A DNA stretch of 64,000 nucleotides. It comes from Candidatus Zhuqueibacter pondensis (lineage in GTDB: Bacteria; Zhuqueibacterota; Zhuqueibacteria; Zhuqueibacterales; Zhuqueibacteraceae). Position 1 is the first letter of the stretch; every line of letters begins with the position of its first letter. The notes below the pieces were generated by a model. That model was not told where the DNA came from and did no database searches. It worked only from the letters and a program-made list of their open reading frames with translations. This document shows positions 18,847 to 43,677 of this stretch, piece after piece. The translations under genes were made by a program, and so were the position numbers. The DNA is taken from NCBI GenBank assembly GCA_034505955.1, contig JAPDQK010000031.1, positions 2,320-66,319 of the forward strand, in the 5' to 3' direction.

Positions 18847-18969
18847 GTATGCTCCGCTTGGGTTTTTACGAAATTACTCTGCTGATTCATGATTTCAAAA
18901 GATAGGCAAATCACAATGAAAAAGCAAGTCTGGCAGCAGAGGTGGGAAGATTTTTGGGCGATAGTGAAG

Positions 18970-19177
18970 TATACTGGTTTAGGGTTAGTTTTTGCATGCT
19001 ACCAAACTCGTCTGTCATTCTGGAAGACTGCGTCCGTAGACTACGCCCGCAGGGAATCTTTTTCAGCATCAACTAAGACGTTAGAAATTCACGCTTTACT
19101 TCATGCGTAAAAATATTCCCTACGGGCGTAGCGTCCTGAATGACATTGCAGTGAAATTTTCACCCTAAACGAGTATA
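18970..19177 (+). mobile_element. MITE family 2, copy a (foldback element with TATACTSGTTTAGGGT terminal inverted repeats)
   Basis: tatactggtttagggt...accctaaacgagtata. The interior carries two inverted REP-like units (ctacgcccgcagggaatc / gattccctacgggcgtag). Near-identical inverted copy at 35665-35886 and a shorter copy at 44063-44227. Confidence 0.85.
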
Positions 19178-19332
19178 ACAGGAGTCGAATGGCCGGCAGG
19201 CAAAAAATCCCGAGGGGACCACCGGCACGGTCACAGACTCATCATCGTATCAATCACCAGGAGAGCGGTGCGGAAGTACCCCAGTTATAGTATTACCCTG
19301 AAAAAATTCTCACAACCCCGAAGATTTTCTAA

Positions 19333-19497
19333 CGTGAATTATTCTTAACCAAAAAGGCACGAAGACACAAAGTTTTGATTTTAGAGAATGACTGGCAGAG
19401 TGGCTATGAAAATTCAGTTTTTTCCCTTGAAGCTTGACAAGTCTTTTCTCTTCGTGTTTTTGTGTCTTGGTGGTTTAAGTTTTATGAATAATTCAGG
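19333..19497 (-). mobile_element. MITE family 1, copy B (inverted relative to copy A)
   Basis: The reverse complement aligns end to end with 4117-4280. Confidence 0.85.
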
Positions 19498-19569
19498 CTA
19501 AAGACAAAATGATTAACGATAAAATTATTTTGTCGTCAAATTATTTTGTGGGTTACGGCAAAAGCTGCT

Positions 19570-21888
19570 TTATGAATCAATTTCAAAGACCTTGCCATCC
19601 GGTGCACGCATGAACAAAACCGGCGCGGCCCAGTCTTGATGATCCAGGCCGGTCTTCGTCATGATGTAATGACGTGCTTCCGCGACGGCGGCATCAATGG
19701 AATTGCTTCTGAAGAGTGTCGGATAAAACACTTTGGAAAACCAAAGAGCAGATACATCCAGAATTTTATGCTGCATGGCAACGACCGCGGGCACACCGAC
19801 TTTCACAAGATTTTGTGCGATGCCGGTAAAAGCATTGGTGCTCGAGGCCGCGGCTGTTTCACAGCTGTTCAGAACCACGAGGTTAACGGAACGCTCTTGC
19901 AGCATGATCGCGAGGGTCTCCGCATCCACCTGATTACGTTCTTTCGTTTCAGATTCCAGAAGCAGAAAAGCCCTGCTGGTTTCAACATCAAATTCGCCGT
20001 GGCCGATGAAATGCAAAACATGTGGATGATGTTTCAATTCCTCCGCCAATTTCTCCGGGGTGGCATTTTCACAAAATCTCAAACGAATATCCCCGGCCCA
20101 GCGGTACGGGCGGAGTGATTTCTTGATTATTTTCTTTTCCCGTTCGACATCCAACGGCGGCAAATCCAAAGGCGCCGCAATGACCACCAATATTTTCAGG
20201 GGAATGCGGAATCGGCGTTTGGGAATGGGTTGTTCGACTTTCAAATAGCGTGTCAGGGAGATGCGCTTGTGAAATGCCATGAAACCCGGCGGCAACTCGG
20301 CACTGCGCAGAAGTTCCCAGGGCAGACAAATCAATTCCGCCGGATCTATTCTCAATTGAAGACGCAGGATTTTCTCTTCGTGCTTGGCGTCCTGGATGCT
20401 CGCCTTCAGAATATTGTAAACCTTCTCGTGAAAAAGGGCATTAAAGAGTTTTGTACCCATCCATTCGAGCTCGTCACGGCTCGCGCGCAAGTCTCGGACT
20501 TTGCGGAGCGTTTCCAGGAAATTTTCCTCCTCCAGGAATGATTGAAAAGTTAAATTGCCCTCCTCTTCGCCGACCGAAGATTCGAAAACATGGATCGGAT
20601 AAATTCCGTCTTGACTTTCCAAAATGCCGACACCCAAATTCTTGTAATTCGGCTGCGGTGCCGTCATCATACGATAATATTTTGCGCGCACGACCAACAT
20701 GCTGACATTGAACGCGGAAAGGGGCACGACCAACCCCAGCCATTGACGATTCAAATTCAACAACAGAAAAATGAGCAAAATAAACAACAGGCTGCCGGTG
20801 ATAAAGATCCATCGGGTTTTGCGCCATTTTTTGGCCAAACGCGGCGTGACAAACAACAACCAGATCAAACCAAGGAAAACCAGCAAAGCACTGTAGAAGG
20901 CCGGATCTGAAAGAACGCGGGCCTCAACCGGGCGATTGAGCAAAAGCTGGCTGACGAGCGAGGCGAGAATCGCCCAACGCGGATAAGGTCCGACAGGACA
21001 TTGCACCGGGGTCTCAGCCGAGGGATTGACGATCAGGACAATTTTATCGCGATAGTGGTGGGAGTTGGATTGAAAATATTGGGTCGTATCCTTCCAGGGA
21101 TAGTGATAGTAAAACGGCTGGAATTCTTCAACGGGTATGAAATTCACCAGCAATTGCCCGTCGCCGTCCAAATTTTGCTCGATCATGCGAAACAGGCTGT
21201 CCGGTGGCTTGAAATAGTGTTGCGCAATTTCAACCGGAAGAGACGCATAACATTTCCGGTTGCCTTGAAAGGTCAGGACCGGAGGAAAATGATGGTATTC
21301 CGAGATCAGCGAATTGATATACCCGACATGCTGCGTCACGAGAAAAAGACTGTCATAAGGCAGATCAACCCCTCGATCGGCAATATTCATGGGAAGGAGA
21401 TTACGACAGGCGGCCTCCGGAAGCGCCAGCCGTGCGAAGTGCTCGAGTTTCCTCATGATGGCAGGTGTCATCTCGTGAGGCGAGGGGCTCCAATCCCCCG
21501 CGAAGTCGATGGACAAGATGACTTCAGGACATTCGGCCACACTTCGTGCGAGCGCTTGATCTCCTTGTCGATCATCCTCATGCTCGCCAACGAAACGGAT
21601 GTCGAAGGCAATCCATTTCGCGCCGGCGTGGTGGAGCTGGCGGATCATTCTGGCATAGTCCGATCGGCGAAGGCGCTCATGCGGATCATCGCAGTCAAGT
21701 ATGACAAGATCAGGGTGAGGACGAAGGGTCGGATGGAAAAAGATGTCATAGAACGCCATGTCGATGCTTTTGGTCAGGGTGCGGGTTGGGGACAGCCATT
21801 TCACAAAGACAGCAATGACCAACGTTGCCGCCAGGCTGCATGCAAACCCGATCATTATAAGCTGCAATTTTTTGCTGATCGGTAACAC
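19570..21888 (-). CDS. CHASE2-like membrane sensor fused to a CHAT (caspase-like) protease domain
   Basis: 772 aa. One N-terminal TM helix, a ~300-aa extracytoplasmic region (DLVILDCDD...WIAFDIRF, a divergent CHASE2 signature), then three TM helices (res ~330-400). Cytoplasmic CHAT domain with His (HVLHFIGHGEF) and Cys (VVLNSCETAAAS) dyad. GTG start with AAGGAG RBS directly after the upstream stop. Confidence 0.8.
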   Translation of the reverse strand: MLPISKKLQLIMIGFACSLAATLVIAVFVKWLSPTRTLTKSIDMAFYDIFFHPTLRPHPDLVILDCDDPHERLRRSDYARMIRQLHHAGAKWIAFDIRFVGEHEDDRQGDQALARSVAECPEVILSIDFAGDWSPSPHEMTPAIMRKLEHFARLALPEAACRNLLPMNIADRGVDLPYDSLFLVTQHVGYINSLISEYHHFPPVLTFQGNRKCYASLPVEIAQHYFKPPDSLFRMIEQNLDGDGQLLVNFIPVEEFQPFYYHYPWKDTTQYFQSNSHHYRDKIVLIVNPSAETPVQCPVGPYPRWAILASLVSQLLLNRPVEARVLSDPAFYSALLVFLGLIWLLFVTPRLAKKWRKTRWIFITGSLLFILLIFLLLNLNRQWLGLVVPLSAFNVSMLVVRAKYYRMMTAPQPNYKNLGVGILESQDGIYPIHVFESSVGEEEGNLTFQSFLEEENFLETLRKVRDLRASRDELEWMGTKLFNALFHEKVYNILKASIQDAKHEEKILRLQLRIDPAELICLPWELLRSAELPPGFMAFHKRISLTRYLKVEQPIPKRRFRIPLKILVVIAAPLDLPPLDVEREKKIIKKSLRPYRWAGDIRLRFCENATPEKLAEELKHHPHVLHFIGHGEFDVETSRAFLLLESETKERNQVDAETLAIMLQERSVNLVVLNSCETAAASSTNAFTGIAQNLVKVGVPAVVAMQHKILDVSALWFSKVFYPTLFRSNSIDAAVAEARHYIMTKTGLDHQDWAAPVLFMRAPDGKVFEIDS

Positions 21889-21900
21889 CGTATCTCCTTG

Positions 21901-24588
21901 TCAGTAAATCCACGCCAGCAAGGCCACCCGGACTTCATCGACTTCGCCGCGCGCCTTGGCGCCATAGCGATCCAGAACAATTCCCCGGACTTCACGGCTT
22001 TGCAGATATTTTTTGAAACTCTTGTCCACAAAATTTTTGACTTTCGCGATCTGTTTTTTGACTTTATCAGAGAGATTCCCGGCTTTCACGTCGGTACGCT
22101 CCTCGGGAAACTGGAGAAGGGTAAAGGCACTGAGAGAATCCCCTTCCAAAATCTGGGCTGCGGCCAAAAGTGCGGCCTCGGATTTGTGCTGGTATTCAAT
22201 CGTATCCTTCGGCGCGAGTCCCGGTTTCATCAGTTGACAGAGTATCGCCAAATTCAGATACGTGCCCCGACTATAACGATTACACTCCAGAGCCTTTTGG
22301 TAAGCCTTTTCCGCCTCGGTAAAATTGCCGGAGATGAATTCGACATTTCCCAAATTATTCCACGCCGGAGCAAAAGTGGAGGAATCCTGCAAAATTTTTT
22401 TGAATTGCTTTCTGGCCCGATCATATTCGTCATTCTGTCCGAGCAAAATGCCATACATGTTTCGTCTTCGGACGGCGTCAAGAGTTGGCAGGCCCGGCAC
22501 CAGCATTCCCTCGACTTGTTGCAGCCATTGCGTTTTCATGGTTTCCATTGCCATCAAGTCTTTTTGCATGGCGGAAGTAAAGTCTGGAACAGGCTTCAGC
22601 GTATCGGAAAGATGAAATACCACTGGTGGATACTTTGCCTGATGGGCCGCCACTTCGTAGATTCGACACGAAGGGTCGATGGCCTCTGCGGCAGTAGTCC
22701 ACGCCTCGCTGAAACTCGATGAGGGGATCATTGTCGTTTCAATCGGTATCCAAAGGGTTTCCCTCCATTTGACAAAAAGCTTCGGTGAAACCGGCAGGCT
22801 TGTGCTCCGCGAAGTGTCAATCCGGGTGTCGAACATCATGAAAATGTGACCGGGCACACTGATCAACGCCGTGGGCAGGCCGGCATTTTGAAGCAGACTG
22901 GCGTACAACACGGCGAGATCGTCACAGTCACCGAACTGTTCTTTTTTACTCAAAAGCTGGGCCGGATATTTAACCATGTCCAACCGGTAATGGGCGCCGC
23001 GAAGGGTGTCTGCCAATGAAGGGAAAGGCGTCACCGGATCCGGGCGATATTTGATTCCATAAGTCTGCAAGGCACAAAAAAGTTTCAAAGCATCGGTCAT
23101 GCGGTAGCGGGAAAACCACTGCGCTACGCCAGGCTCGGATTCTCTTTCGGTGACTTTGTCAACAAATGCCTTTACCAAAGGATCCTCCGGGGTGATGAAT
23201 GCCGCCGCCTTGCCTGGGTCATCCCAGGTCATGTAATTCTTGCCGTACAGCGCAAAATCCACACCTGCCGTAGCAGCATGTTGGTTTCTTTGGTACTCAT
23301 AAGTTACTTTCACTTCACCGGTCAGCCGGCTTTCCCTGGCGTTGAATATTGTAGAGTCGAAAACCGCTCGCAACGGGAAGTCAATGCGGCGTCCCGGCGG
23401 AACAACGACCATGTCTGTCGCCTGCGGTTTGGGCTGCATGTATCGGCTGGCCTGAAATGAAATCGCTGCAATCAATGTGTCGTTGGACACATTCTTGAGT
23501 TTTATGGATCCGACCTTCGCACCTGGCAGCCCATAGTGCTGATATAGAGAGGCGAAGACATTGTCAATATGTGCGCCTTCGATTCTGAGCAAGCGGGGAT
23601 TGTCTTTTAAAATAAGCGATCCGCCGAATTGCTTGTTGGTATTGGGCAGCACCGGCGAATCGGTCAGCGCATAATCGACTGTCACTCCGGGATAATCCTT
23701 CAACGCCTTTTTAAAGCCGAGGCCGAAGGAGAAAGTGGCGTTTTCATCGGTGTGCAAATCCTTTTGCAGTCCGGCCCGCAATGCCAACGTGTGTGCCAGC
23801 CAAAATTCCAACCCCAGGTGTATCCGGTCGTCAAAATCGATGGCCAGGACCGGATCGGAAAGGGGGATTTTTTTGCCTGGCCATTCTTCAAATGGCCGGT
23901 AGCTCAAGCCCCAGCGGATATTCTGACGCTGGATCAACTCTTTTCTTTTGGTTTCATGTTTCACCCACGTTCCACCGCCGGCGTCATGCACCATGAGACC
24001 CCAATTGATTCCCTCGGGTAGATAAGGTACCGCACCCAAATTGTAGAGAATGCCGAAATCCCAGCCCCAGCCGCTGGCGTCAGCTTCGAGGTGTGTGAAG
24101 AGTTTCGGATCAAGTTTCGCTTGCAGCTTCAAATATTTGGCATTCGCCCCGATACTGAGATCACGAAGATGGGGCCAGCTTTGAGGCGGCTTAAAAGCCA
24201 AAGCAAAAGTAAATTGATCGCGTGTAAATTCGAACTCTTCGTCGCCGGTATTTATTCCGGACCAATCCACACCAAAAGCCAGATAATCGGTCAGCGGTGG
24301 GATAAAGTAAACCCGTGAAAGGAAGTTGGCGTAATAACTATCAATATTGAGGCCAAAAAGATCGGCATAATTGAAACTTGCCTGGATATGTTCCATCCGC
24401 GCCAGGCCTGCGGGGTTCCAGGAGATGGCATTGCCGTCATCTGCGACCGCGACAAAGGCTTCGCCCATGCTCAGCGGCCGCGTGCCGACGGGAATCTGGT
24501 TGCGGATCTGCGCGTTCGATGGTTTTGCGAAGAAAAGCAAAGAAGCAAGTGCAAGAATGAATGAGGTGAATTTAGGTGATCGTTTCAT
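21901..24588 (-). CDS. Outer-membrane beta-barrel (PorV/FadL-like, tentative) fused to a transglutaminase-like cysteine protease core and C-terminal TPR repeats
   Basis: 895 aa with a signal peptide ending PSNAQ. Barrel N-terminus with the motif LSMGEAFVAVADDGNAISWNPAGLA. Transglutaminase-like Cys (FGDCDDLAVLYASLL), His (VPGHIFMMF) and acidic (WIPIETT) residues. TPRs (APAWNNLGNVEFISGNFTEAEKAYQKALE...). Confidence 0.75.
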   Translation of the reverse strand: MKRSPKFTSFILALASLLFFAKPSNAQIRNQIPVGTRPLSMGEAFVAVADDGNAISWNPAGLARMEHIQASFNYADLFGLNIDSYYANFLSRVYFIPPLTDYLAFGVDWSGINTGDEEFEFTRDQFTFALAFKPPQSWPHLRDLSIGANAKYLKLQAKLDPKLFTHLEADASGWGWDFGILYNLGAVPYLPEGINWGLMVHDAGGGTWVKHETKRKELIQRQNIRWGLSYRPFEEWPGKKIPLSDPVLAIDFDDRIHLGLEFWLAHTLALRAGLQKDLHTDENATFSFGLGFKKALKDYPGVTVDYALTDSPVLPNTNKQFGGSLILKDNPRLLRIEGAHIDNVFASLYQHYGLPGAKVGSIKLKNVSNDTLIAAISFQASRYMQPKPQATDMVVVPPGRRIDFPLRAVFDSTIFNARESRLTGEVKVTYEYQRNQHAATAGVDFALYGKNYMTWDDPGKAAAFITPEDPLVKAFVDKVTERESEPGVAQWFSRYRMTDALKLFCALQTYGIKYRPDPVTPFPSLADTLRGAHYRLDMVKYPAQLLSKKEQFGDCDDLAVLYASLLQNAGLPTALISVPGHIFMMFDTRIDTSRSTSLPVSPKLFVKWRETLWIPIETTMIPSSSFSEAWTTAAEAIDPSCRIYEVAAHQAKYPPVVFHLSDTLKPVPDFTSAMQKDLMAMETMKTQWLQQVEGMLVPGLPTLDAVRRRNMYGILLGQNDEYDRARKQFKKILQDSSTFAPAWNNLGNVEFISGNFTEAEKAYQKALECNRYSRGTYLNLAILCQLMKPGLAPKDTIEYQHKSEAALLAAAQILEGDSLSAFTLLQFPEERTDVKAGNLSDKVKKQIAKVKNFVDKSFKKYLQSREVRGIVLDRYGAKARGEVDEVRVALLAWIY

Positions 24589-24690: not shown

Positions 24691-27636
24691 TCATTCATTG
24701 AGCACCATCACTTTCTTTTGGGCCTTGAGCACCGCGCTTTCGATGGTCAGAATATAGAGTCCTGTCGGACAAATCCGGCGATCCCGATCCCGGCCATTCC
24801 AGGCCACGGCATTGACACCGGTGCTCATGGGTTTATCCCAGATCGTATCCACCAATCTCCCGGCGAGATTGTAGACGCTGACACGAACATGCGCGTCTTG
24901 CTTTAAATAGAAAGAAAGCGTGGTTTCCTGACCGTGGCCGCCGCCAGCCGGGGAGAAGATACGCGGCTGGGCATTGACACCGGCAATCTCCTGAGGTCGA
25001 GGCACCTCTCCTTGTGGCGCCGCAGTACGCACCGAGTAGCGCCCCAAGCGATGAATTGGCGTTGACAGGCACACGGTATCGCCTTGGGTTTCTGAGGTGC
25101 CACCGAGCCGTGCTGCCTGGGGTTGTTCGCGATGAATCGCCAGCGGCTGCCCTCTGATGCTGTCATTTAAAGGAAAAGAGAAGGTAAGCTTCACCGGCTT
25201 GATCAGAGAATCCAATCGCGAATCTTGAAACTTCAGATCATAGGCCAACACGGTATGTGCATCTAATGAGTCAACAGGGACCGGCCGGATGGTGATTTTG
25301 GTATTCAGACCGAACTGATTATTCGGCGGCCAAAAAAGGATGATCTTCACCGGGCGCAAACCGCGGAATCCGCTGGCGTCGGTGAATGCTGTGGCGCTGC
25401 CGGTGTCCGGCGCAACTTTATAGAAAGACTTGGTAGCCCAGTTGGGGACGTCCTCATTATTATCTCGGTCAATTGCTTTCACATGGAAAGTATGCAGTCC
25501 ATTCCTGGTGACTTTGAGGCGGGCAAAAGTGTCGGACGTATATTCTGACCATGAATCGTTATCCAATTTATATGAATAGCGCAGCAAGCTTTTTGCGGTA
25601 TTCAAATCTCTGCCGATGAAACGAAAAAACACTTCCGGCTGAGTGGTGACATCAATGGCTTCTATGATCTCCGTATCCGGGAGCCCCTTTTGTCGCCGGT
25701 ATCTGGTCACACCGTCAGCGCGGGTCCCGAACCAAATCTCTCCTTTGCTTGTATCCAGGAGGAGATGCCGCACGTGATTGTCAGCGAGGCCGTCTATTGT
25801 GGTATAATTTGTCCATCGTCCTGTGCTGTCACGATAACTCACACCACCGCCGGTGGCAAACCAGATCTCGCCGTGCTTGCCAATGATTATGTCTTCAACG
25901 AAGTCATCAATAAGGCCATCCCTTGTCGTGATCTTTTTCCATGTTTCGTTCATGAAGCTGCTGGCACCGCCGCCCAACGTACCGAACCAGATTTGACCAC
26001 TGGTCGGATCAACCGTGATGGAGCTGATATTGTTGTTGCCAAGGCCTTGTGGAATGCTATTCGTGGTAAAGCTTTTCCATGCGCCATCATAACGGCTGAT
26101 ACCAACAGCGGTGCCGCACCACAGCCGGCCTTGTTTATCCACGGCAAGCGCCTTGATTTGGTCACTGAGCAAACCGCCTCGAGTGTTTTTTATGGTGAAA
26201 GTCGCATCCCAGGTTTTTGTGTCACCTCGAATATGGAGACGACACAATCCGCCTGTCGTGCCAAACCAGATGAACTCATTATCGATTGCGATGGCCTGAA
26301 TTTCGTCGCTCACCAGGCCGCTGTCGGTGCTTTGGGTGGTGAAACTTTCTATTTGGTCCGCATTGGGTTTGATCCGGATGACCCCTCCTCCGAAGGTGCC
26401 CAACCACAAGGTGGTATCGCTGGCAATTGCGATTGCCGTTATTTTATTTCTAATATCGGTGGGGTCGTTCGGGAAGTAAGCTCTCGGATGCCAGGTGTTG
26501 CTTGTGTAACGCGCGATGCCACTCTTGGTACCGATCCAAATCTGTCCAAGTTGATCTCTTGCCATGACAAACGTTTCATCGTTGAGGATGTTGTCACCGA
26601 AGGCGGTCGAGAATGTGGTCCAATTGGCAGTGTATTTGGTTACGCCAGAGGGGGCGAACGATCCGAACCAGAGATCGCCATCGTCATCGACCGCGATACT
26701 GGAAATCACTTTGCGGTCGAGATCCGGCGAGCCTGGCGTACATCGCCAGTTCAGACTCAAGGGATCGAGGATTAACACGCCGACATCGGTACCAAACCAA
26801 AGAAGGCTCTCATTGTCGGCAACGATTGCTCGGATGGATACCCCGCTTTTTATGTCCAGCCGTTGACAAGCTGGCACTTTGACCGATTTCAAACTCAGTG
26901 TTGTGCCGGTATCAACCAGTTTGTGGACAAGTGTCGTATCCGAAAACCCGAAGGCGCCGAACCATTTATTGTTTTTTTGGTCAACGCCAATACACAACAC
27001 GTTGCTGATTGCAAAACTGGTATCCCAATGGGCGTTGGCATTGAGTTTTGAAACGCCTCTAGATGTGCCAAACCAAAGATTGCTCGAGGAGTCGGCGGCA
27101 ACGGCATTGATAAAATTGCTCAACAATTTGCCGCCACTGTTTTTGACGGTAAAAGTATCAATGACCGAGCCATGGGGATCGATCTTAATGACACCCCCAC
27201 CGTTGGTTCCCAGCCAGACATACCCAATGTCGTCTACTGCAATGCTGTTGACTTGATTATTGGTAAGGCCATTGGAGGTATCGTAGAAATCCCAGGTGTT
27301 TTTATCGGGATTAAAGCGGCCAGCCCCCCGACTCTGCGTGCCAACCCACAGGTTGCCGAAATGATCCATGGCAAGTGAGCGGATGAAATTCTCACGCAAC
27401 TTGCTGTTGGCGGTATTGTACTCGACAAATCCGTTGCCATCAAAGCCGATCAACCCGCTGCTTTGGGTTCCAAACCAGATGATTTTTCGGTTGTGTTTGG
27501 AGTCGGAGACAATCGCCCGAATATCTCTTCCGGTGAGATATTCGGTAAAAACGTCTGCCATTACCTCGTATTGAGGAATAATGGCAGCTATCAATATGAG
27601 TTGCCGGATGAACGAATTCTTCAACTTGCTTTTCAT
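24691..27636 (-). CDS. Secreted multi-propeller protein (Reg_prop-like repeats) with Ig-like region and CTD
   Basis: 981 aa. More than 12 repeats of the LW(F/V)GT..G(V/L) type, a Y_Y_Y-like/Ig-like region, and C-terminal CTD (SFYLKQDAHVRVSVYNLAGRLV...WNGRD...GLYILTIES...KKVMVLNE). Confidence 0.75.
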   Translation of the reverse strand: MKSKLKNSFIRQLILIAAIIPQYEVMADVFTEYLTGRDIRAIVSDSKHNRKIIWFGTQSSGLIGFDGNGFVEYNTANSKLRENFIRSLAMDHFGNLWVGTQSRGAGRFNPDKNTWDFYDTSNGLTNNQVNSIAVDDIGYVWLGTNGGGVIKIDPHGSVIDTFTVKNSGGKLLSNFINAVAADSSSNLWFGTSRGVSKLNANAHWDTSFAISNVLCIGVDQKNNKWFGAFGFSDTTLVHKLVDTGTTLSLKSVKVPACQRLDIKSGVSIRAIVADNESLLWFGTDVGVLILDPLSLNWRCTPGSPDLDRKVISSIAVDDDGDLWFGSFAPSGVTKYTANWTTFSTAFGDNILNDETFVMARDQLGQIWIGTKSGIARYTSNTWHPRAYFPNDPTDIRNKITAIAIASDTTLWLGTFGGGVIRIKPNADQIESFTTQSTDSGLVSDEIQAIAIDNEFIWFGTTGGLCRLHIRGDTKTWDATFTIKNTRGGLLSDQIKALAVDKQGRLWCGTAVGISRYDGAWKSFTTNSIPQGLGNNNISSITVDPTSGQIWFGTLGGGASSFMNETWKKITTRDGLIDDFVEDIIIGKHGEIWFATGGGVSYRDSTGRWTNYTTIDGLADNHVRHLLLDTSKGEIWFGTRADGVTRYRRQKGLPDTEIIEAIDVTTQPEVFFRFIGRDLNTAKSLLRYSYKLDNDSWSEYTSDTFARLKVTRNGLHTFHVKAIDRDNNEDVPNWATKSFYKVAPDTGSATAFTDASGFRGLRPVKIILFWPPNNQFGLNTKITIRPVPVDSLDAHTVLAYDLKFQDSRLDSLIKPVKLTFSFPLNDSIRGQPLAIHREQPQAARLGGTSETQGDTVCLSTPIHRLGRYSVRTAAPQGEVPRPQEIAGVNAQPRIFSPAGGGHGQETTLSFYLKQDAHVRVSVYNLAGRLVDTIWDKPMSTGVNAVAWNGRDRDRRICPTGLYILTIESAVLKAQKKVMVLNE

Positions 27637-27667: not shown

Positions 27668-30600
27668 TTATTTCAGCAATGCCAATTTCCGTACTTGTGA
27701 AAATTTGCCGGCTTCGAGGCGGATGATGTAGACGCCCGTGGACAAACTTCGATCGTTTTGATCCCGTCCATTCCATGCCAAGTGATAATACCCGGCCTCC
27801 TGCTGCTTGTCAACAAGGGTAATCACCGATTGGCCGAGCACATTGAAGATCTGCAAGCGAACTCGTGCTTCCACAGGCAGGCCGTAGGCGATTGTGGTTG
27901 CCGGATTTCCCGCGAAGCGCGGGATCTGCGAAAATGGATTGGGATAGTTTTGTGACAAAAAGAATTCCTTCGGAATCTTTTTTATCAAGCTGATTCGCGC
28001 CGATGCCTCCATGACAGGGCCATCGTTCACGGAGAATTTTTTCAATTCCAACAAGCTGCTCTCACCCACCTTGCCCGTAGCCCGAAAAGTGACAATCGCA
28101 ACTTCCCCGGCGCTGGGGGCCGGGCCAACACTTGACAATACGGCTTCCAGTCGTCCGGGCTTTTGCTGATAGTTCAGCTTGCCGGTTTCCAGAGGTTTGC
28201 ATTTGGCGACGGCAAGCATTTCAAGTTGCGTCGGATCGAAGGCCAAATCAATGCGAGCGGAATATATTCGCTGCTCGGGTGCGATCCTTAATGGCAAATT
28301 AAAAACTTCTCCAGGAGCAACCTCCAGGTCATGCAGGAATGGATAAATCGTCTGATTGGACTCAGTGGCGATCCGAGAACTCGACGACGGTATCCAGTTC
28401 CCGTCTATATCTCCTAAAAGCAAGGCAACAAAATCCTGGCTTTGATTTGAATTGAGCGACTGATAAGTTTTGCAAACAGGGTCGAAACGCCATTGCCCGG
28501 TGTAACCGACACCCAATTGCACTTGGCCACCAATAAAATGCTTGAGCAAAGTGCTATCTTCCGGATCGACAATCTGGTTTTGGTTAACGTCAGCCAACAG
28601 ACTTTGCCAATTGTTCAGCGGTTGTCCCGAAAAATGTTTTCGCAACAAAGTCAAATCCGCGCTATTTATTGCCGAGCCGATGCCACCGGTCTTGGAAGGA
28701 GTAACAATGTAAGTGTTGCCACCGAGAACACCCAAGAACCGATAGATACCGTCGGCGGCTGTCGTAAGTTTATCAAAGCTGCCTCCGTCCAGCGTGACTT
28801 CAGTGTTTCCAACCGGTATGCCGGTTGATTGGGCATATCTGACGGTTCCGGTTATATCAAAATGAGCACAGGTTGTCGTGTTTTCGAGACTCGCGCCAAG
28901 ATTGGCGTCTCCGTTGACATCGCCATACAGAATTCCGACAAAATTCAATCCCTGAAAGTTATAATTTTGTAAGACAAATGTCAAGTTGTCCGTAGGGGTG
29001 GCAACTTTGCTGGGATCGACACTGGTAATCGGGTCGATGAAAATCCAGTCTTTCCCAACCGGAAATCGGTCACAAGGAGATTTGCGATTGTTTATTCTCG
29101 TAACATCATTTAGAGTTACGCTACCACTACCATCGACATCAGCAGCGATTCTGGCGTACACTTCTTCGTTATTTCCTGTACAGGAGCCTTGACGACCAGG
29201 CTGAGTATCGGCTAAGTCCATAGCCCTGTTTACATCATCAGAGCTAATGGCATTAACAGGGACACCGGAATGGGTTACAGTAATCTTGTAAGTGCCGGCG
29301 TCGCTCTTCATCGTGTGGAATACAAATTCTCCATTCGAACCCGTGGTTTGGGAATCTCTCAGCCTGCCCTGTGTCACCAGCTTCACCCTCGCCCCTTGCA
29401 CGCGTTTCGCATCGAGGTTGAAGTATTTGATCGCGCCCCGAACCTCGAACGATTCAAGCGGCTCCCACTTAAAATCAAGCTGCCGAGTCACGCGGTTTCC
29501 TCCTCCTTGTCCTTCATACCAGGAAAATTCAAACTTGATAGCAGGCGCTTCCGTGCCCAGAAACGGTACTTTGGTGACAAATTTAAACACAGGGGGTGGC
29601 TCCATCATAGTTGGTTGATTAGGAGCCAGATCACCATAAAAAAGGGTAGACCCTGTTATATCATATTCTATCAGATCGTGATTGAAATCCAGGACCCTGC
29701 CTGTGATGGTTGCCGCTGTTGCCCCGCTTTGCAGGATATGTTTCAACTGGTGCGCTATTTGTAACAAGGTGTCCTGACATTGGATCACGAGGGTCGGCAC
29801 GATATTGATCATTTTGAGGGAAACATTGTCACCAGGCAGCCCGAAGACAACATTGGTAACATTGTCCGAAGGCGGAGTGGCAGCCACGTTCATCTCGAAG
29901 CTCTTTTGCAGCCCGGGAGAGGTTTTCTGAATGACCAGCAGAATAAAATGGAGTGTATCCGGCAGAGGCGCGTTCGCAGCGGTGAACTCATAAATGTCAT
30001 TGGAAAATACCGAATCGCCGGGAGCGATGTTATTAAAGGTGGAAACACTATCCGGGCCGATGGTAATGGTTGGCTCAAAAGTTTTCAATATGGAAAAGAG
30101 CGGGCCGGTGTCTTCGGAGCCGTAATTTTTTAGTCTTATTTTCAGCGCAATCTTTTCGCCCGGGTTGACGACGCCGTTGGCCTCACCATTGACGACCGTT
30201 TCTGTTATGGCGCTGCCGGCATACTCGAGGTCAAGCCCTTTAGTCCCCTTGTTCGGCGTGGCGAGCGCCTCGAAAAAGGCACAACCAAGATTTTCGCTGA
30301 TCTCATTGTGTCCGGCCAGGCCATTGCCACCTCGAAGGATTTCATCAAATTCGCGCGGATCGGGCCGGCGTTGCCAGGATTTCAGCAAGCTATGCTGCGA
30401 AAGAGGCGAACATTTCCCCAGAGGAATCATCGCTATACCATGAAATATTGGAATGACCCGTTCCCCATCACTGCCGTAAACTGAGGGAATGGCGTCAGCA
30501 TCCATGCCATCAATGGCCAGGCCGGTTTTGTTAATTTCCTCACCGGATCGTGGAGTTGAATTCCAAACCACATAGTCGACGTCATCCACGAGATCGCTGG

Positions 30601-33217
30601 AATCAGCCGCAACCCATTTGAAAAGGATAACCACATCATTCGAATCTTTCAAACCAATGGTGCCGCTGCCGAGCTTGTCAACGACCATATTGTTGCCCAC
30701 ATTGAAATCGGTATCGAAGATTTCATAAGTCGGCTTCACGCCATATCGCTTAAAAAACCTGTCGGCGCGAAAGGCAATGGTTTGGTATTGGCGCGGGCCG
30801 ATTTTCGCGCCATCGGGGAAGTGAACAAAGAAATCATCCTCGTCCACCTCCAGGGAATCACGGCCCTTGACGATACGGGTGTAGCTGTTTCTCCGTAATT
30901 TGCCATTCGGCATTCTATAATCACCATTATCGGCCAGAAAGTAATTGGCAAGCTCAATTGTTTTTGAGGAAGAAGGATTAAAGATTTCAATGAACTCAGC
31001 CGAAGCCGGCCACACACAAACTTCCGAAATCAGCAAATGCTCCTGAGGCAAAAAAGGGCCGGGCCCAACAGGATTTCTGAAGCCAATGGAAGGTTTGGTG
31101 CGGCTGATAAAGCTGCCAGGATCTGTCAGGATGCTGCCGGTAGAGTCGGGATTGAGTTCGTAAGAAAATCCTTCCTTCGCAAAGGCAACAAATTTGCCTT
31201 TCGGCCACAGCCTGGCTTGTACGGCAATGTTTTCAATCTTTGTCACACGACCGCCAATTTGGATGAAATCAACCATGCGGCAGGGCTCGTCAAAACCGGC
31301 AACTTCACCCGTCGTGATCTGCTGCACCAGCGCGATCGCAAACGGAAAGGTGTTGATGTTCCCGGGACCTCCCAAAGTCATGTTGGTTGCCGAAGTACTG
31401 TTATTCCCCCAAAATCGAAAAGGTTCTAAAACTAAAGTTTTGGAAGGCAGACCTGTGAATACATTTCCTCGATCGTTTTTACCTTGCCCCAGCCAGTGAA
31501 CCACTAACAGACCACCCGGCGCCAATCGAATGCCCTGGGGAAATGCCCAGTAAGTATCCAGCACACCACGCCTGATCCACAGCGCAAAACCATCCAGTGA
31601 AATCGTGTCGGCTGTGCTAATATTCTTCAATTCGATCTTTTCTGTGCCGAATTCAAATCGTAAACCTGGGCCCTGTCCCAAAGTGTCCACAACAAAGTCA
31701 TTGAAATTGGGATCATACAGGATTTCATTGATGACGACCTCATGAATGCTGGGGAACGCAGAAATCGTAAGGGAATCGACACCAACGGCTTGGTTGCCAA
31801 GAGCATCAACCACAGTGCAAGATGCGATCAATTTATTATTACCGGAAGACAATGGCACCCTCACCATCACCATGGTGTCAGAGCTGGCCGGCTGAATGCC
31901 ATTCACATTATATTGAATCGTGTAGGGAGGAATACCACCGGTTATGCGAGTGACCGCGGTGACGGTGACACTGTCGTCACAGACAAATGCACTATCACGC
32001 GGGGAAATAATGGTGAGCTGACATGACAGGTTTTCTTCGAGACTGAAGAGATAAACGGCTCCGGCGTTGGATGCTTCCGTATCGTCGAAAGGTGCCCCGA
32101 TCAAGACTTTGTTACCAACGGCTGCTATTGAGTATCCGAACTTGTCTTCGGTGGCAGGAGTCGGGTTCTGGAAAGTTCCAAGCAGCGTGCCAGTCGCAGC
32201 ACTGAAACGGTGGACAGCCCCGGCGTCGGTTGCGCCGGCGTCATCGCTGGGCGCTCCAATGAGAATCATGTCACCAATTGTTGTAATCGCAGCACCGAAT
32301 TCATCTCCGGTATCAGGAGTGGGATTCGGAAAATTTTCGAGCACACTTCCCGTGGTGGCATCAAAGAGATAAACCACTCCAGCACCGGTTGCACCCATGT
32401 CATCAAAAGGCGCTCCGAGGAGAACGTTGTCACCAAAGGCTGCGACGGAAAAGCCCAATCCGCTGCCGCCAACTCGAGGCTGATTCATGAAAATGTTCAT
32501 CAATTGACCGCTGTAACCATCAAAGAGATAAGCAGCGCCGGCGTCGGTTACTGCTTTGTCACGATCGAAAGGTGCTCCAACGACGAAGTTGCTGCCAACA
32601 GCAGTAAGGGAATATCCGAAGCGATCACCGCCACCCGGAAACGGATTGGGGATCGTTAGGAGACGTTCACCGGTAGTGGCATCGAATACATAGACCGTTC
32701 CGGCATCAGGAGCGCTGGTGTCATCAAAAGGGGCTGCAATGATGATCTTGTTACCAACAACAGCGATCGAAGAGCCAAAGCGATCGAACACATTTGGAAA
32801 CGGATTCCGGATGGTCAGAAGTTGCTCGCCGGAGGTACCATCGAAAAGATAGACCGCACCGGCATCTGTTGAATCCGTATCGTCAAATGGCGCTCCGATA
32901 AGGATCTTGCTGCCGAGCGTGGCGACTGAGTAGCCGAATTGGTCATCGTTGTCAGGAGTCGGATTCAGAAAAGTCCGCAGGTGCGCGCTGGTTCCGCCAT
33001 CAAAGAGATATGCGGCTCCGGCTATGATTTCGCCGATAGTGTCGCCGGGCGCGCCGATGAGGAGATTATCATCAACGGTCGTGACCGCATAACCGAATCG
33101 GCCCGAGGCCGTGCGATTAGGGCTGAAGAACGTTTGCAGCGGCTGTGGCATTTGCGCCAGCGCATGGCCGGCAAGCACGAATAAGGCCGCAAGAACGAGG
33201 AAAGTTGTCTTGTTCAT
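27668..33217 (-). CDS. Giant secreted surface protein: 7-bladed FG-GAP (integrin-alpha-like) propeller, two lamin-tail domains, CARDB/Ig-like and carboxypeptidase-regulatory-like domains, dockerin-like Ca-binding loops, a cohesin-like domain and CTD
   Basis: 1849 aa with signal MNKTTFLVLAALFVLAGHALAQ. Seven FG(Y/S)S(V/I)A..G..(L/I)IGAP.DD....DAGAVYLFD repeats. LTD motifs VVINEILYDPN and LLISEVCVWPASAEFIEIFNPS. DVDGSGSVTLNDV and DVNQNQIVDPED loops. Cohesin-like LEVAPGEVFNLPLRI...IDLAFDPTQLE. CTD NYPNPFS...IFNVLGQSV...WNGRD...GVYIIRLEA...KLALLK. Confidence 0.8.
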   Translation of the reverse strand: MNKTTFLVLAALFVLAGHALAQMPQPLQTFFSPNRTASGRFGYAVTTVDDNLLIGAPGDTIGEIIAGAAYLFDGGTSAHLRTFLNPTPDNDDQFGYSVATLGSKILIGAPFDDTDSTDAGAVYLFDGTSGEQLLTIRNPFPNVFDRFGSSIAVVGNKIIIAAPFDDTSAPDAGTVYVFDATTGERLLTIPNPFPGGGDRFGYSLTAVGSNFVVGAPFDRDKAVTDAGAAYLFDGYSGQLMNIFMNQPRVGGSGLGFSVAAFGDNVLLGAPFDDMGATGAGVVYLFDATTGSVLENFPNPTPDTGDEFGAAITTIGDMILIGAPSDDAGATDAGAVHRFSAATGTLLGTFQNPTPATEDKFGYSIAAVGNKVLIGAPFDDTEASNAGAVYLFSLEENLSCQLTIISPRDSAFVCDDSVTVTAVTRITGGIPPYTIQYNVNGIQPASSDTMVMVRVPLSSGNNKLIASCTVVDALGNQAVGVDSLTISAFPSIHEVVINEILYDPNFNDFVVDTLGQGPGLRFEFGTEKIELKNISTADTISLDGFALWIRRGVLDTYWAFPQGIRLAPGGLLVVHWLGQGKNDRGNVFTGLPSKTLVLEPFRFWGNNSTSATNMTLGGPGNINTFPFAIALVQQITTGEVAGFDEPCRMVDFIQIGGRVTKIENIAVQARLWPKGKFVAFAKEGFSYELNPDSTGSILTDPGSFISRTKPSIGFRNPVGPGPFLPQEHLLISEVCVWPASAEFIEIFNPSSSKTIELANYFLADNGDYRMPNGKLRRNSYTRIVKGRDSLEVDEDDFFVHFPDGAKIGPRQYQTIAFRADRFFKRYGVKPTYEIFDTDFNVGNNMVVDKLGSGTIGLKDSNDVVILFKWVAADSSDLVDDVDYVVWNSTPRSGEEINKTGLAIDGMDADAIPSVYGSDGERVIPIFHGIAMIPLGKCSPLSQHSLLKSWQRRPDPREFDEILRGGNGLAGHNEISENLGCAFFEALATPNKGTKGLDLEYAGSAITETVVNGEANGVVNPGEKIALKIRLKNYGSEDTGPLFSILKTFEPTITIGPDSVSTFNNIAPGDSVFSNDIYEFTAANAPLPDTLHFILLVIQKTSPGLQKSFEMNVAATPPSDNVTNVVFGLPGDNVSLKMINIVPTLVIQCQDTLLQIAHQLKHILQSGATAATITGRVLDFNHDLIEYDITGSTLFYGDLAPNQPTMMEPPPVFKFVTKVPFLGTEAPAIKFEFSWYEGQGGGNRVTRQLDFKWEPLESFEVRGAIKYFNLDAKRVQGARVKLVTQGRLRDSQTTGSNGEFVFHTMKSDAGTYKITVTHSGVPVNAISSDDVNRAMDLADTQPGRQGSCTGNNEEVYARIAADVDGSGSVTLNDVTRINNRKSPCDRFPVGKDWIFIDPITSVDPSKVATPTDNLTFVLQNYNFQGLNFVGILYGDVNGDANLGASLENTTTCAHFDITGTVRYAQSTGIPVGNTEVTLDGGSFDKLTTAADGIYRFLGVLGGNTYIVTPSKTGGIGSAINSADLTLLRKHFSGQPLNNWQSLLADVNQNQIVDPEDSTLLKHFIGGQVQLGVGYTGQWRFDPVCKTYQSLNSNQSQDFVALLLGDIDGNWIPSSSSRIATESNQTIYPFLHDLEVAPGEVFNLPLRIAPEQRIYSARIDLAFDPTQLEMLAVAKCKPLETGKLNYQQKPGRLEAVLSSVGPAPSAGEVAIVTFRATGKVGESSLLELKKFSVNDGPVMEASARISLIKKIPKEFFLSQNYPNPFSQIPRFAGNPATTIAYGLPVEARVRLQIFNVLGQSVITLVDKQQEAGYYHLAWNGRDQNDRSLSTGVYIIRLEAGKFSQVRKLALLK

Positions 33218-35273: not shown

Positions 35274-35664
35274 GGTCCGATCTCCTAAAAGTAAATAGGG
35301 GGCAAATCTCCGAACCTCCCAAATTTTAAAAAGAATCTTGTTCAAAGACTTCCTACCTTTTATAGACACAAAAACAGTGAATTCTCTCCTGACTTTAAAA
35401 AAATTTTACCCCTGACTTCAGGTTTACATCGGCGGCCATAAGCTCTACGGCCATGCGTTTCAGAAGCAAACTATGGATAAATTGAGGTGCGGGGGGAAAC
35501 GATCTTGCGCTCTATTTGCTTTTTTACAACGAAAATTAGCTCATCTCAGAGAAGTTAAGGGGAAAAATGTAACAAAATGTACATAACTCGAGCGCAAAAG
35601 TCAAGCTTCAAATCAACTCAGGAACGAGGTTTTTAAATTGGAAAGACAGAAACTTCCTAGTTTT

Positions 35665-42707: not shown

Positions 42708-43677
42708 CGAGATCGCGATCGCGTTGTTGGTTCCATCGCACCCAATCGAGGTCCGCGCCGTGATCGACAAAACGACTCGGCTCGGAGGAACGGCCATCCC
42801 GGCCAATCACTACTTGTTGCTGCGCGCGCACCAACTTGACCCAGGTTTCCAAAGGGACCCGTTGCGGCCCGGGAACCTGTTGCGGCGGTGGCACTTGTTG
42901 CGGCGGACCGACTTGTTGCGGACGAATGAGACTGCTGCCGCCGCGCACTTCCACCGTGCCTTCATAAACCCGCACATTGGTTGTACTGTCGGCGGCAACG
43001 GTGGCGCGATAAGCCGTGCCTTGCACACCGGCAATCGCGGTCGGGAATTTGACCTCGACTTTGGGCTGGCGGCTGAAAATTTTGGTGACGCGTGTCCACA
43101 ACGAACCCAAAGAAAGATCGAACTGGGCTTGTGCCGGTGGTGCATGGGCATGGAGTGTTTGGGCGCGCAAGAGTTTGGTAATTTTCAAATGTGAATTGGC
43201 GGCAAGACGCATGACGCTGCGATTATCCAACACCAATTCAGCCCGTGCCTTTGCGCCGGTTTGGATTTCATCGCCGGGACCCAAAAACAAATTCGGTTGC
43301 ACTGGAATAAAATCACCCTGGTTGCCACGACGATATTGCACCGGTCCATCGTAAAAAGTGACAACTGCCTGCAGCGCTGCGGTGCGAAGCTGCTCCGAAC
43401 TCGGCTCCGGCGCCGAGCGCAGGGGAAAAATCAACGAGTCGCCGGGATGAATCAGGTTGAGGTTGGCGAGGTGAGAATTGGCCTGTTTCAAAACCGTGAA
43501 CAGCGAATCATTGAAAAAACCGTAATAGCGCACGGCAAGATAACTCACCGTATCGCCACGGCGAACAATGAACGTCTTGTGGGAAATTGGTGAGTGGCTG
43601 GAGAACATAAAGGGGGAGACAAGAATGCCAGTCACCACCAGCAGAGATCTAAACATTGGCGGAGATTGGGATCTCAT
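42694..43677 (-). CDS. Secreted LysM domain plus FecR-like domain protein
   Basis: 327 aa with a signal-like N-terminus. LysM (FIVRRGDTVSYLAVRYYG...NLIHPGDSLIFP). FecR-like beta-rich region (ELVLDNRSVMRLAANSHLKI...VKFPTAIAGVQGTAYR...VRVYEGTVEV). Pro/Gln-rich tail. Confidence 0.7.
   Translation of the reverse strand: MRSQSPPMFRSLLVVTGILVSPFMFSSHSPISHKTFIVRRGDTVSYLAVRYYGFFNDSLFTVLKQANSHLANLNLIHPGDSLIFPLRSAPEPSSEQLRTAALQAVVTFYDGPVQYRRGNQGDFIPVQPNLFLGPGDEIQTGAKARAELVLDNRSVMRLAANSHLKITKLLRAQTLHAHAPPAQAQFDLSLGSLWTRVTKIFSRQPKVEVKFPTAIAGVQGTAYRATVAADSTTNVRVYEGTVEVRGGSSLIRPQQVGPPQQVPPPQQVPGPQRVPLETWVKLVRAQQQVVIGRDGRSSEPSRFVDHGADLDWVRWNQQRDRDLDAER

Follow-up and report, generated by a model that had tools for sequence, protein, structure and literature searches.

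The CHASE2-CHAT gene and its product

We analyzed a 64,000-nucleotide (nt) stretch of DNA from Candidatus Zhuqueibacter pondensis (contig JAPDQK010000031.1, positions 2,320 to 66,319; hereafter the window) and focused on a gene at positions 19570-21888. The product of this gene combines a CHASE2 sensor domain, four transmembrane (TM) segments and a C-terminal CHAT domain, and we refer to it as CHASE2-CHAT. An earlier note on this DNA, made from the sequence alone, had described a CHASE2-like sensor fused directly to a caspase-like protease. The most informative feature of the locus, and our main new point, is one that the note missed: the gene is strictly linked to genes for two envelope proteins. 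The features of the gene and its product are listed here in order along the protein, followed by the two codons of the predicted catalytic dyad.

19570-21888, minus strand: CHASE2-4TM-CHAT gene, 772 amino acids (aa), GTG start, stop codon included (from the list of open reading frames (ORFs) and Pfam)
21893-21898, minus strand: Shine-Dalgarno sequence AGGAGA, 5 nt 5' of the GTG (read directly from the sequence)
21799-21861, minus strand: TM1 (residues ~10-30), hydropathy peak 2.58, with a short positive N-terminus before it
20914-21798, minus strand: predicted periplasmic CHASE2 ectodomain (residues 31-325), divergent and without WPW (from Pfam and profile alignment)
20689-20913, minus strand: TM2-TM4 bundle (residues 326-400), hydropathy peaks 2.29, 2.71 and 1.73, with the TM2-TM3 loop TPRLAKKWRKT
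20431-20688, minus strand: juxtamembrane or pre-CHAT module (residues 401-486), three beta-strands and helices in the structural model
19615-20430, minus strand: predicted cytoplasmic CHAT domain (residues 487-758; Pfam, 112 bits, and Foldseek)
19999-20001, minus strand: codon of the predicted catalytic His630, in HFIGHG (from translation, conservation and alignment with H862 of DdvA)
19861-19863, minus strand: codon of the predicted catalytic Cys676, in LNSCETA (from translation, conservation and alignment with C907 of DdvA)

The ORF lies exactly where it had been placed, and the motif strings that had been quoted for the dyad are present, FIGHGEFD at 19987-20010 and LNSCETA at 19852-19872. 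A public copy that is 100% identical is named 'CHAT domain-containing protein [candidate division KSB1 bacterium]' (P0001; proteins and loci from the databases are referred to here by P and L numbers) and has 761 aa. The deposited start (21856-21888 region) is probably 11 codons too late, because the upstream GTG has the AGGAGA site and begins an N-terminus, MLPIxKKLQL, that is kept among CHASE2-CHAT orthologs. This GTG is 12 nt past the stop codon of the preceding gene.

The C-terminal domain is caspase-like with an intact dyad

We found that the C-terminal domain has a caspase-like fold and an intact His/Cys dyad, and we predict that it is catalytic. Searches with hidden Markov models (HMMs), proposed in the earlier note as a check, placed both the CHASE2 and the CHAT family well above the Pfam thresholds. 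CHAT (PF12770) matched residues 487-758 with an E value of 3.9e-32 (112.3 bits; gathering score, 24) over profile positions 13-286 of 289. H626, G629, H630, N674 and C676 were invariant in an alignment of 19 full-length orthologs. The equivalent His, Gly, His and Cys also do not vary in a wider set of 68 relatives (Cyanobacteria, Chloroflexota, Actinomycetota, Acidobacteriota, Gemmatimonadota and other groups).

The comparison with characterized CHAT proteases agreed with this assignment. The catalytic dyad of DdvA is H862/C907 (PMC11506125). H630 and C676 aligned with these two residues and with the GHG and NAC motifs of SAVED-CHAT, as expected if the dyad is intact, as it had appeared to be in the earlier note. 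A profile search of the sequences in the PDB found SAVED-CHAT (8tl0; E 4.9e-12) and DdvA (8rot; E 0.0037). In addition, we made an AlphaFold2 model of CHASE2-CHAT (predicted local distance difference test (pLDDT) 82.4; predicted template modeling score 0.59) and compared it to known structures with Foldseek. The best match was SAVED-CHAT 8tl0 (E 1.3e-11, probability 1.00). Csx29 in Craspase (7zoq), DdvA (8rot, E ~1e-9), separases, gingipain R, MALT1 and caspases-4, -6, -7, -9 and -11 were also matched, all with probability 1.00. E values for the CHAT, separase, gingipain and caspase structures ranged from 1e-11 to 1e-3. That is, the caspase-like fold that had been proposed was recovered from the model.

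Other families were matched weakly or were not found. There was a weak match to Peptidase_C25 (E 3.1e-4) and none to Peptidase_C14 at E up to 1 (Pfam). Pfam revealed neither SAVED nor TPR in the protein, and Pfam and NCBIfam revealed no anti-sigma domain in its 772 aa. The NCBIfam model for HetF (NF045509) gave 87 bits over profile positions 72-376 of 836. We rejected the possibility that CHASE2-CHAT is a HetF ortholog; the score is far below the equivalog cutoff of 1200.

The pre-CHAT module and the CHAT domain (profile positions 400-757) match as a single unit in thousands of relatives that have CHAT without CHASE2. The pre-CHAT segment, residues 401-486, is the least conserved cytoplasmic part of the protein, with a mean identity of 46%.

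Membrane topology

A Kyte-Doolittle scan found four hydrophobic segments, at residues ~10-30, 326-347, 359-379 and 384-400, and the AlphaFold2 model has helices at 4-31, 327-350, 355-379 and 387-407. The distribution of charge around these segments was the same in 19 of 19 orthologs. The net charge was +2 to +4 for the N-terminus, +3 to +5 for the TM2-TM3 loop (+5 in the 11 residues TPRLAKKWRKT), approximately zero for the TM3-TM4 loop, and +2 to +5 for the 15 residues past TM4. The TM2-TM4 bundle is the best-conserved segment of the protein (mean identity, 57%).

Because of the four helices and this positive-inside charge pattern, the CHASE2 domain (295 residues) is predicted to be periplasmic and the CHAT domain cytoplasmic. 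Both the 1+3 layout of TM segments and the placement of sensor and protease on opposite sides of the membrane, which had been put forward before, are borne out by this prediction. To our knowledge, every CHASE2 receptor described has CHASE2 in the periplasm and its output in the cytoplasm.

A divergent CHASE2 domain

Pfam CHASE2 (PF05226) matched residues 27-340 with an E value of 1.3e-22 (81.1 bits; gathering score, 26.3), spanning profile positions 7-253 of 257. In the model, the ectodomain has an alpha/beta fold, with pLDDT mostly 75-92.

The window encodes a second CHASE2 protein, at 40494-42806, that has a CHASE2 domain (166 bits) together with a Pkinase domain and carries the sequence GGWPWPR. 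Early in the ectodomain, CHASE2 proteins typically have the stretch G-x-W-P-W-x-R, which is not a formal criterion of the family. The earlier note had stated that this stretch is missing from the ectodomain of CHASE2-CHAT, and the profile alignment confirmed it: compared with the CHAT-linked family, the kinase has the WPW stretch inserted, and the Arg (R75) alone is shared. R75 is invariant in the CHASE2-CHAT orthologs. To regard this divergent domain without WPW as a distinct sensor subfamily is a fair reading.

The two CHASE2 regions in the window gave nothing significant in a pairwise BLASTP comparison (E 4.6), whereas an HMM of the CHAT-linked CHASE2 family matched that of the kinase at E 1.5e-11. 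The kinase had been called paralogous, which is a loose term here. It is related at the level of profiles and not by BLASTP similarity. The statement that CHASE2 is a sensor for kinases, cyclases or diguanylate cyclases is incomplete, since a fusion of CHASE2 to a caspase homolog from Trichodesmium has been published (PMC2853523, PMC3501461).

Distribution of the architecture

CHASE2-CHAT proteins are rare. Among 5.8 billion proteins, a word-indexed search returned 20 with the CHASE2 plus CHAT architecture, at 37-100% identity to the query. When 1.84 billion cluster representatives were searched with a profile in HMMER, there were 46,092 matches, and only ~19 representatives and a few fragments matched the CHASE2-CHAT profile over its whole length. 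From rank ~26 on, the matches covered only profile positions ~400-757, that is, pre-CHAT plus CHAT. Among the GTDB species representatives, full-length loci were found only in L001 (44% identity) and L002 (31%). All sources that name an organism give candidate division KSB1. We found this architecture to be uncommon and without a functional description.

The CHAT module by itself is found very often, in 9,654 representatives at E of 1e-30 or lower. It is mostly N-terminal in these relatives, followed by AAA_35, FGE-sulfatase, WD40/PD40 propellers, TPR, COR, SIR2, EAD1, nSTAND1, HD-CE or REC. The closest CHAT relatives from many phyla (loci L005-L080, for example L007, L022, L044, L051 and L066) have an N-terminal CHAT domain, one TM segment and an extracytoplasmic domain, which can be FGE-sulfatase, a YNCE/PD40 propeller, CBM9 or Big_2. 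Receptor-like, membrane-anchored CHAT proteins thus appear to be widespread and largely unstudied.

We considered whether the relatives with ~300-450 residues after CHAT represent a reverse-order CHAT-CHASE2 architecture, and rejected it: Pfam found CHASE2 in only 3 of 68. The others have AAA_35, FGE-sulfatase, propellers, CBM9 and other domains. One reverse-order protein, CHAT-TM-CHASE2-3TM with 859 aa, is encoded in the Blastocatellia bacterium UBA11740 (L070, 9947-16194). Its CHASE2 domain was missed by a local HMM of the KSB1 CHASE2 plus TM region and was revealed by a TM scan and Pfam. A search with this domain found only five relatives, two of them close, and the reverse-order architecture is also rare. 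The gene in L070 shares 4 nt with a gene whose 1223-aa product has TPR and seven PASTA domains. Here, for the second time and independently, a protein having CHASE2 and CHAT is paired with an envelope-associated TPR protein.

Two other proteins deserve mention. P0303 (ENA metagenome, 591 aa), which came up in the search with the reverse-order CHASE2 domain, has precomputed Pfam matches to CHASE2 and TIR_2, and TIR_2 is typical of conflict and cell-death systems. P0038 (858 aa) has 61% identity over 44% of the length of the protein encoded just upstream of CHASE2-CHAT (see below) and, in addition, fits the CHASE2-CHAT profile at positions 253-756. Either the two adjacent genes have truly undergone a fusion or deletion, or P0038 is an artifact of assembly or a frameshift.

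A conserved cassette with two envelope proteins

Five genes, from 35369 to 19570, are all on the minus strand and are separated by short gaps. The four upstream of CHASE2-CHAT, in order of transcription, encode proteins with features of envelope proteins or of type IX secretion system (T9SS) cargo.

33225-35369, minus strand: T9SS-tail protein, 714 aa (Pfam)
27668-33217, minus strand: giant T9SS-cargo-like protein, 1849 aa, with FG-GAP, LTD, cohesin, dockerin and FlgD_ig (Pfam); not part of the core of the cassette
24691-27636, minus strand: PorZ-like propeller gene, first of the cassette, 981 aa, with Reg_prop (E 5.7e-43) and FlgD_ig (Pfam)
21901-24588, minus strand: upstream partner gene, 895 aa, with a signal peptide, a PorV-like barrel, a beta-sandwich, a transglutaminase-like domain and TPR

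We found that the CHASE2-CHAT gene directly follows the partner gene in nine of nine loci, often with a gap of 9-13 nt. These loci are the window, L001 (judged by ORF sizes), L081, L082, L083/84, L085, L087, L088 and L089. The partner proteins have ~865-925 aa. The linkage is kept in L087, from a KSB1 genome, though the partner there is only 34% identical, and in L088 and L089, which diverge most among the full-length members. Ahead of the partner gene lies the PorZ-like gene in seven of the eight loci in which that side is visible; its position is conserved in L081, L082, L083, L085, L087 and L088.

The partner has a 14-strand barrel (residues ~31-330), a beta-sandwich (334-450), a transglutaminase-like domain (455-660) and TPR (670-865). 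It matched the NCBIfam model PorV_fam (NF033709) with E 1e-20 (74.6 bits; cutoff, 90), and NCBI names its more distant homologs 'PorV/PorQ family protein'. The model of the partner has a pLDDT of 85.2. The best Foldseek matches to the barrel were chain F of the SprA translocon structures 8gl6 (E 9e-8; TM-score on target, 0.59) and 6h3i (E 3e-7; 0.65), with FadL next. We take chain F to be PorV, judging from its length. A PDB sequence search with the partner profile found TPR proteins only; the barrel was recognized by fold alone. The TPR is supported by Pfam. The only Pfam matches to the middle domain at E of 10 or lower were two transglutaminase-like families (E ~0.015). C555 and H581 do not vary across 52 partner homologs, E617 shows 96% conservation, and one homolog passes the Transglut_core threshold. 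A PorV-like barrel with ~560 extra residues, which lie outside the PorV/PorQ family, seems to be undescribed. Residues 385-638, the beta-sandwich plus the transglutaminase-like region, also gave a weak match to the NCBIfam model for the anti-phage protein ProA (E 2.5e-9, 35 bits; cutoff, 1500).

The 981-aa propeller protein matched NCBIfam PorZ (NF052228) with E 1.1e-35. We rejected it as a PorZ equivalog; its score, 123.2 bits, is under the cutoff of 260, and we speak of a resemblance to PorZ only. Its C-terminus has FlgD_ig, a T9SS-type sorting domain, and scores 22 bits against Por_Secre_tail (cutoff, 23).

Giant genes similar to that at 27668-33217 are found upstream of the cassette in L081, L082 and L085. 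Several paralogs of the cassette occur per KSB1 genome. L081 and L085 are two tandem paralogous cassettes on one 207-kb contig (JGI 3300031576, Ga0247727_10000079, 85.6-114 kb). A giant LTD/FG-GAP/FlgD_ig protein comes before each of them, and the CHASE2-CHAT of the second cassette has 825 aa. Outside the cassette lie genes with housekeeping roles, among them those for ribosomal protein L28, for pyrimidine-nucleoside phosphorylase and for an amino-acid kinase, in an order that is partly shared between genomes.

Downstream of CHASE2-CHAT in the window is a 720-nt stretch (18847-19569) with no ORF larger than 73 aa. Rfam gave only sub-threshold chance matches there, and a scan for consensus promoters and terminators was at the background level. 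In L082, which is syntenic, this position is filled by a Por_Secre_tail gene of 545 aa. Because of that gene, we think that the stretch may be the remnant of a gene.

A model for CHASE2-CHAT function

We regard CHASE2-CHAT as an inner-membrane receptor-protease that probably reports events in the cell envelope by cutting a cytoplasmic protein. The full model, in which CHASE2 senses an envelope complex and thereby drives a regulatory cleavage by CHAT, has in our judgment about an even chance of being correct. We infer a contact with the partner, a mode of activation, a substrate, and an outcome that is regulatory rather than lethal, as follows. The periplasmic CHASE2 domain would read the state of an outer-membrane or surface complex, and what it contacts would probably be the TPR arm of the partner and not a free small ligand. 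The signal would then cross the bundle of four TM segments. A change in the arrangement or proximity of CHAT domains would turn the protease on, as for caspases and other CHAT enzymes. Active CHAT would cut a cytoplasmic target, or itself, as the regulatory output.

The earlier note took the proteolysis to be gated by a ligand; the strict linkage to envelope proteins suggests that CHASE2 has a protein as its partner and not a free small ligand. An outer-membrane barrel with an even number of strands has both ends in the periplasm; by this rule, the C-terminal domains of the partner would be periplasmic. The other outputs of CHASE2 receptors (histidine and Ser/Thr kinases, class III cyclases and GGDEF domains) act as dimers, and proteases of the caspase type are commonly activated by induced proximity or by allosteric alignment of the dyad. 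A rearrangement of a dimer could therefore drive a protease equally.

There are precedents for the two ends of this model. The CHASE2 cyclases of Sinorhizobium meliloti need, or sense through, the outer-membrane barrel NsrA (PMC13001267). HetF illustrates that a membrane-anchored CHAT protein can serve as a specific regulatory protease (PMC8406250, PMC9457339). In Burkholderia and Pseudomonas, a LysM-FecR gene precedes, in an operon, the gene for a CHASE2 histidine kinase (PMC5192318). In the window, a gene for a secreted LysM plus FecR protein (42694-43677, minus strand) overlaps the start region of the CHASE2-Ser/Thr kinase gene at 40494-42806. Because this pairing matches that of the Burkholderia and Pseudomonas operon, it suggests, by analogy, that CHASE2 sensors generally work with a periplasmic partner that is encoded upstream. 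The overlap of the reverse-order Blastocatellia gene with the gene for the TPR and PASTA protein is a further precedent for a CHASE2 domain that reads another protein.

Several points weigh against the model. The contact between CHASE2 and the partner is read from gene order, the topology from hydropathy and charge, and the periplasmic placement of the C-terminal domains of the partner from the even-strand rule for barrels; the family as a whole is known from sequences, models and gene order. The cassette encodes no candidate substrate, and the conserved neighbors are all secreted or outer-membrane proteins. The gene downstream of CHASE2-CHAT varies between loci. In Marinimicrobia there are partner homologs without a CHASE2-CHAT neighbor, indicating that the partner can function without CHASE2-CHAT. 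In addition, STAND NTPases, SIR2 and EAD1, which are typical of conflict systems, occur as fusion partners in close relatives of the CHAT module.

Alternative explanations

It is possible, but in our view unlikely, that the protease acts on itself only. Self-cleavage in the juxtamembrane region would free or destroy a fragment, or CHAT would be mainly a scaffold with no substrate in trans. DdvA, a transmembrane CHAT protein and among the best structural matches to CHASE2-CHAT, has been proposed to cleave itself in trans within a dimer (PMC11506125). The low conservation of residues 401-486 and the fact that no substrate gene is linked to the locus would fit this explanation. However, self-cleavage would free only the protease, since the 772 aa contain no releasable effector such as a DNA-binding or anti-sigma domain. 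The invariance of the dyad and its flanking motifs over wide distances fits real catalysis.

We assign a similarly low probability to a role in defense or abortive infection, which the earlier note had thought conceivable. CHASE2, alone or with the surface proteins, would detect phage at the envelope, and CHAT would kill or arrest the cell, perhaps by cleaving essential proteins or by activating a toxin. CHAT proteases are effectors in type III CRISPR systems and in the cyclic oligonucleotide-based anti-phage signaling system (CBASS), the best structural match is to the SAVED-CHAT filament 8tl0, and relatives of the CHAT module are fused to nSTAND1, AAA_35, SIR2_2, EAD1 and COR. The CHASE2 plus TIR_2 protein P0303 and the weak resemblance of the partner to ProA point in the same direction. 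PADLOC gave weak matches to SAVED_CHAT (E 1.2e-9) and BovA (E 1.7e-6), but in PADLOC-DB 2.0 these cover the CHAT part only (positions 102-270 of 498 in the SAVED_CHAT profile), and the two upstream genes matched no PADLOC defense family. No adjoining gene encodes a gasdermin, toxin, nuclease or cyclase, and the partners in the cassette are T9SS-type envelope proteins. Synteny of the locus extends across genomes at 45-50% identity, and the locus lies beside housekeeping genes and has an even GC content; it is not in a variable island. The PADLOC evidence is thus at the level of domains, the cassette is vertically conserved, and we found no support for a role in defense.

It is very improbable that CHAT lies outside the cytoplasm and serves, like PorU, as a sortase or processing protease for T9SS cargo in an analog of the PorU/V/Z/Q attachment complex, a reading that we rejected on the predicted topology: PorU is a clan CD gingipain-like protease that acts with PorV, PorZ and PorQ (PMC5562754, PMC8545088), the cassette has PorZ-like and PorV-like neighbors, CHAT can be periplasmic, as in DdvA (PMC11506125), and CHASE2-CHAT has a weak Peptidase_C25 match and a structural likeness to gingipain R, but that match is what clan-level homology would give, the charge pattern in 19 of 19 orthologs puts the N-terminus, the TM2-TM3 loop and the segment past TM4 in the cytoplasm, Pfam found no T9SS C-terminal sorting domain in the protein, and a protein anchored in the inner membrane would be unable to reach the surface of the cell.

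Implications

Our preferred explanation remains that of a receptor-protease that senses an envelope complex. A more specific version is a new trans-envelope pathway: the surface propeller, delivered by the T9SS, would dock on the barrel, the transglutaminase-like and TPR arm of the partner would contact CHASE2 in the periplasm, and the protease, as the sole output of the receptor, would cleave a cytoplasmic regulator. We offer this version tentatively and consider it rather less likely than not to hold in full. If true, it would be a bacterial counterpart of receptor-to-caspase signaling, and CHASE2 would gain a defined protein partner.

CHASE2 is widespread and, as far as we know, its ligands have been largely undefined since 2003. 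The strict linkage to two envelope proteins provides a testable candidate for what CHASE2 reads. In CHASE2-CHAT, this sensor is coupled not to a kinase or cyclase but to a protease, whose output is irreversible. The protein also extends the list of sensor-coupled CHAT proteases from soluble defense (SAVED-CHAT, Craspase) and single-pass (HetF, DdvA) forms to a polytopic receptor whose sensor is extracytoplasmic, and it bears on the regulation of caspase-fold proteases outside eukaryotes. The immediate reach is limited, as this is a small family from uncultured KSB1 bacteria.

Comparison with known systems

The cassette resembles the PorU-PorV-PorZ-PorQ system of Porphyromonas gingivalis in that a clan CD protease is found together with a PorV/PorQ-like barrel and a PorZ-like protein that carries a sorting domain (PMC5562754, PMC8545088, PMC10947112). 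In contrast to the surface sortase of that system, the protease here is in the inner membrane with a predicted cytoplasmic catalytic domain. In addition, all of the matches in the cassette are under the NCBIfam cutoffs, and the barrel carries ~560 extra aa.

CHASE2-CHAT shares TM-CHASE2-3TM and a C-terminal cytoplasmic output with canonical CHASE2 receptors, for example the kinase at 40494-42806 in the window and CyaD1, CyaD2 and CyaK of S. meliloti, which work with NsrA (PMC13001267). The S. meliloti and Burkholderia (PMC5192318) receptors also rely, genetically or functionally, on a secreted or outer-membrane partner. Canonical outputs are Ser/Thr and histidine kinases, class III cyclases and GGDEF/EAL domains, whereas the output here is a protease. 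The known partners are FecR-LysM or NsrA; here the partner is a PorV-like, transglutaminase-like and TPR protein, and the ectodomain is without WPW.

The best matches to the protease domain are SAVED-CHAT (8tl0) and the TPR-CHAT protein Csx29 of Craspase (7zoq, 8eex), in which a fused or bound sensor switches CHAT allosterically. Those proteins are soluble, are activated by cyclic oligoadenylate or target RNA, and are encoded in defense loci. In contrast, the neighbors of CHASE2-CHAT encode envelope proteins, and we found no CRISPR or CBASS gene with Pfam and PADLOC.

Two membrane-bound CHAT proteins are also similar. HetF of Anabaena PCC 7120 is a CHAT protease at the cytoplasmic membrane that has the substrate PatU3 and is tied to the envelope and division machinery (PMC8406250, PMC9457339). 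Its CHAT domain is of broadly the same type, and the NCBIfam HetF model matches residues 476-761 of CHASE2-CHAT. HetF differs in having CHAT at residues 1-555, one TM segment, TPR and no CHASE2. DdvA of Myxococcus xanthus (8rot, 8rw5) is a transmembrane CHAT signaling protein for which signal-induced proteolysis has been proposed (PMC11506125). It uses a periplasmic TPR-CHAT as the sensor, has a single TM segment and a cytoplasmic zinc anti-sigma domain bound to a sigma factor of the ECF (extracytoplasmic function) type, and regulates a CBASS-CRISPR island, whereas CHASE2-CHAT has four TM segments and a CHAT domain predicted to be cytoplasmic.

In the literature that we searched, no paper pairs 'CHASE2' with 'CHAT domain'. 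A related fusion is known from Trichodesmium, where a metacaspase with CHASE2 was listed by Jiang et al. in 2010 (PMC2853523). For the metacaspase-TM-CHASE2-3TM arrangement, Asplund-Samuelsson et al. (2012) proposed an outward-facing receptor and a protease that works in the cytoplasm (PMC3501461), and a review from 2020 draws a ligand on CHASE2 that activates the cytosolic p20 domain (PMC7475262). The protein from Trichodesmium erythraeum IMS101 (IMG 638105709) and CHASE2-CHAT both combine a caspase-fold protease with TM-CHASE2-3TM, with the sensor proposed or predicted to be outside and the protease inside. They differ in that the Trichodesmium protease is a Peptidase_C14 (p20) domain N-terminal to the sensor, whereas here it is CHAT and C-terminal. 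The Trichodesmium protein is cyanobacterial, and no cassette with PorV-like and PorZ-like proteins has been reported for it. That is, the concept of CHASE2 joined to a caspase homolog is already in print, as a hypothesis, for Peptidase_C14. The novelty of the present protein lies in its use of CHAT, in the C-terminal position of the output, as in kinases and cyclases, and in the KSB1 lineage.

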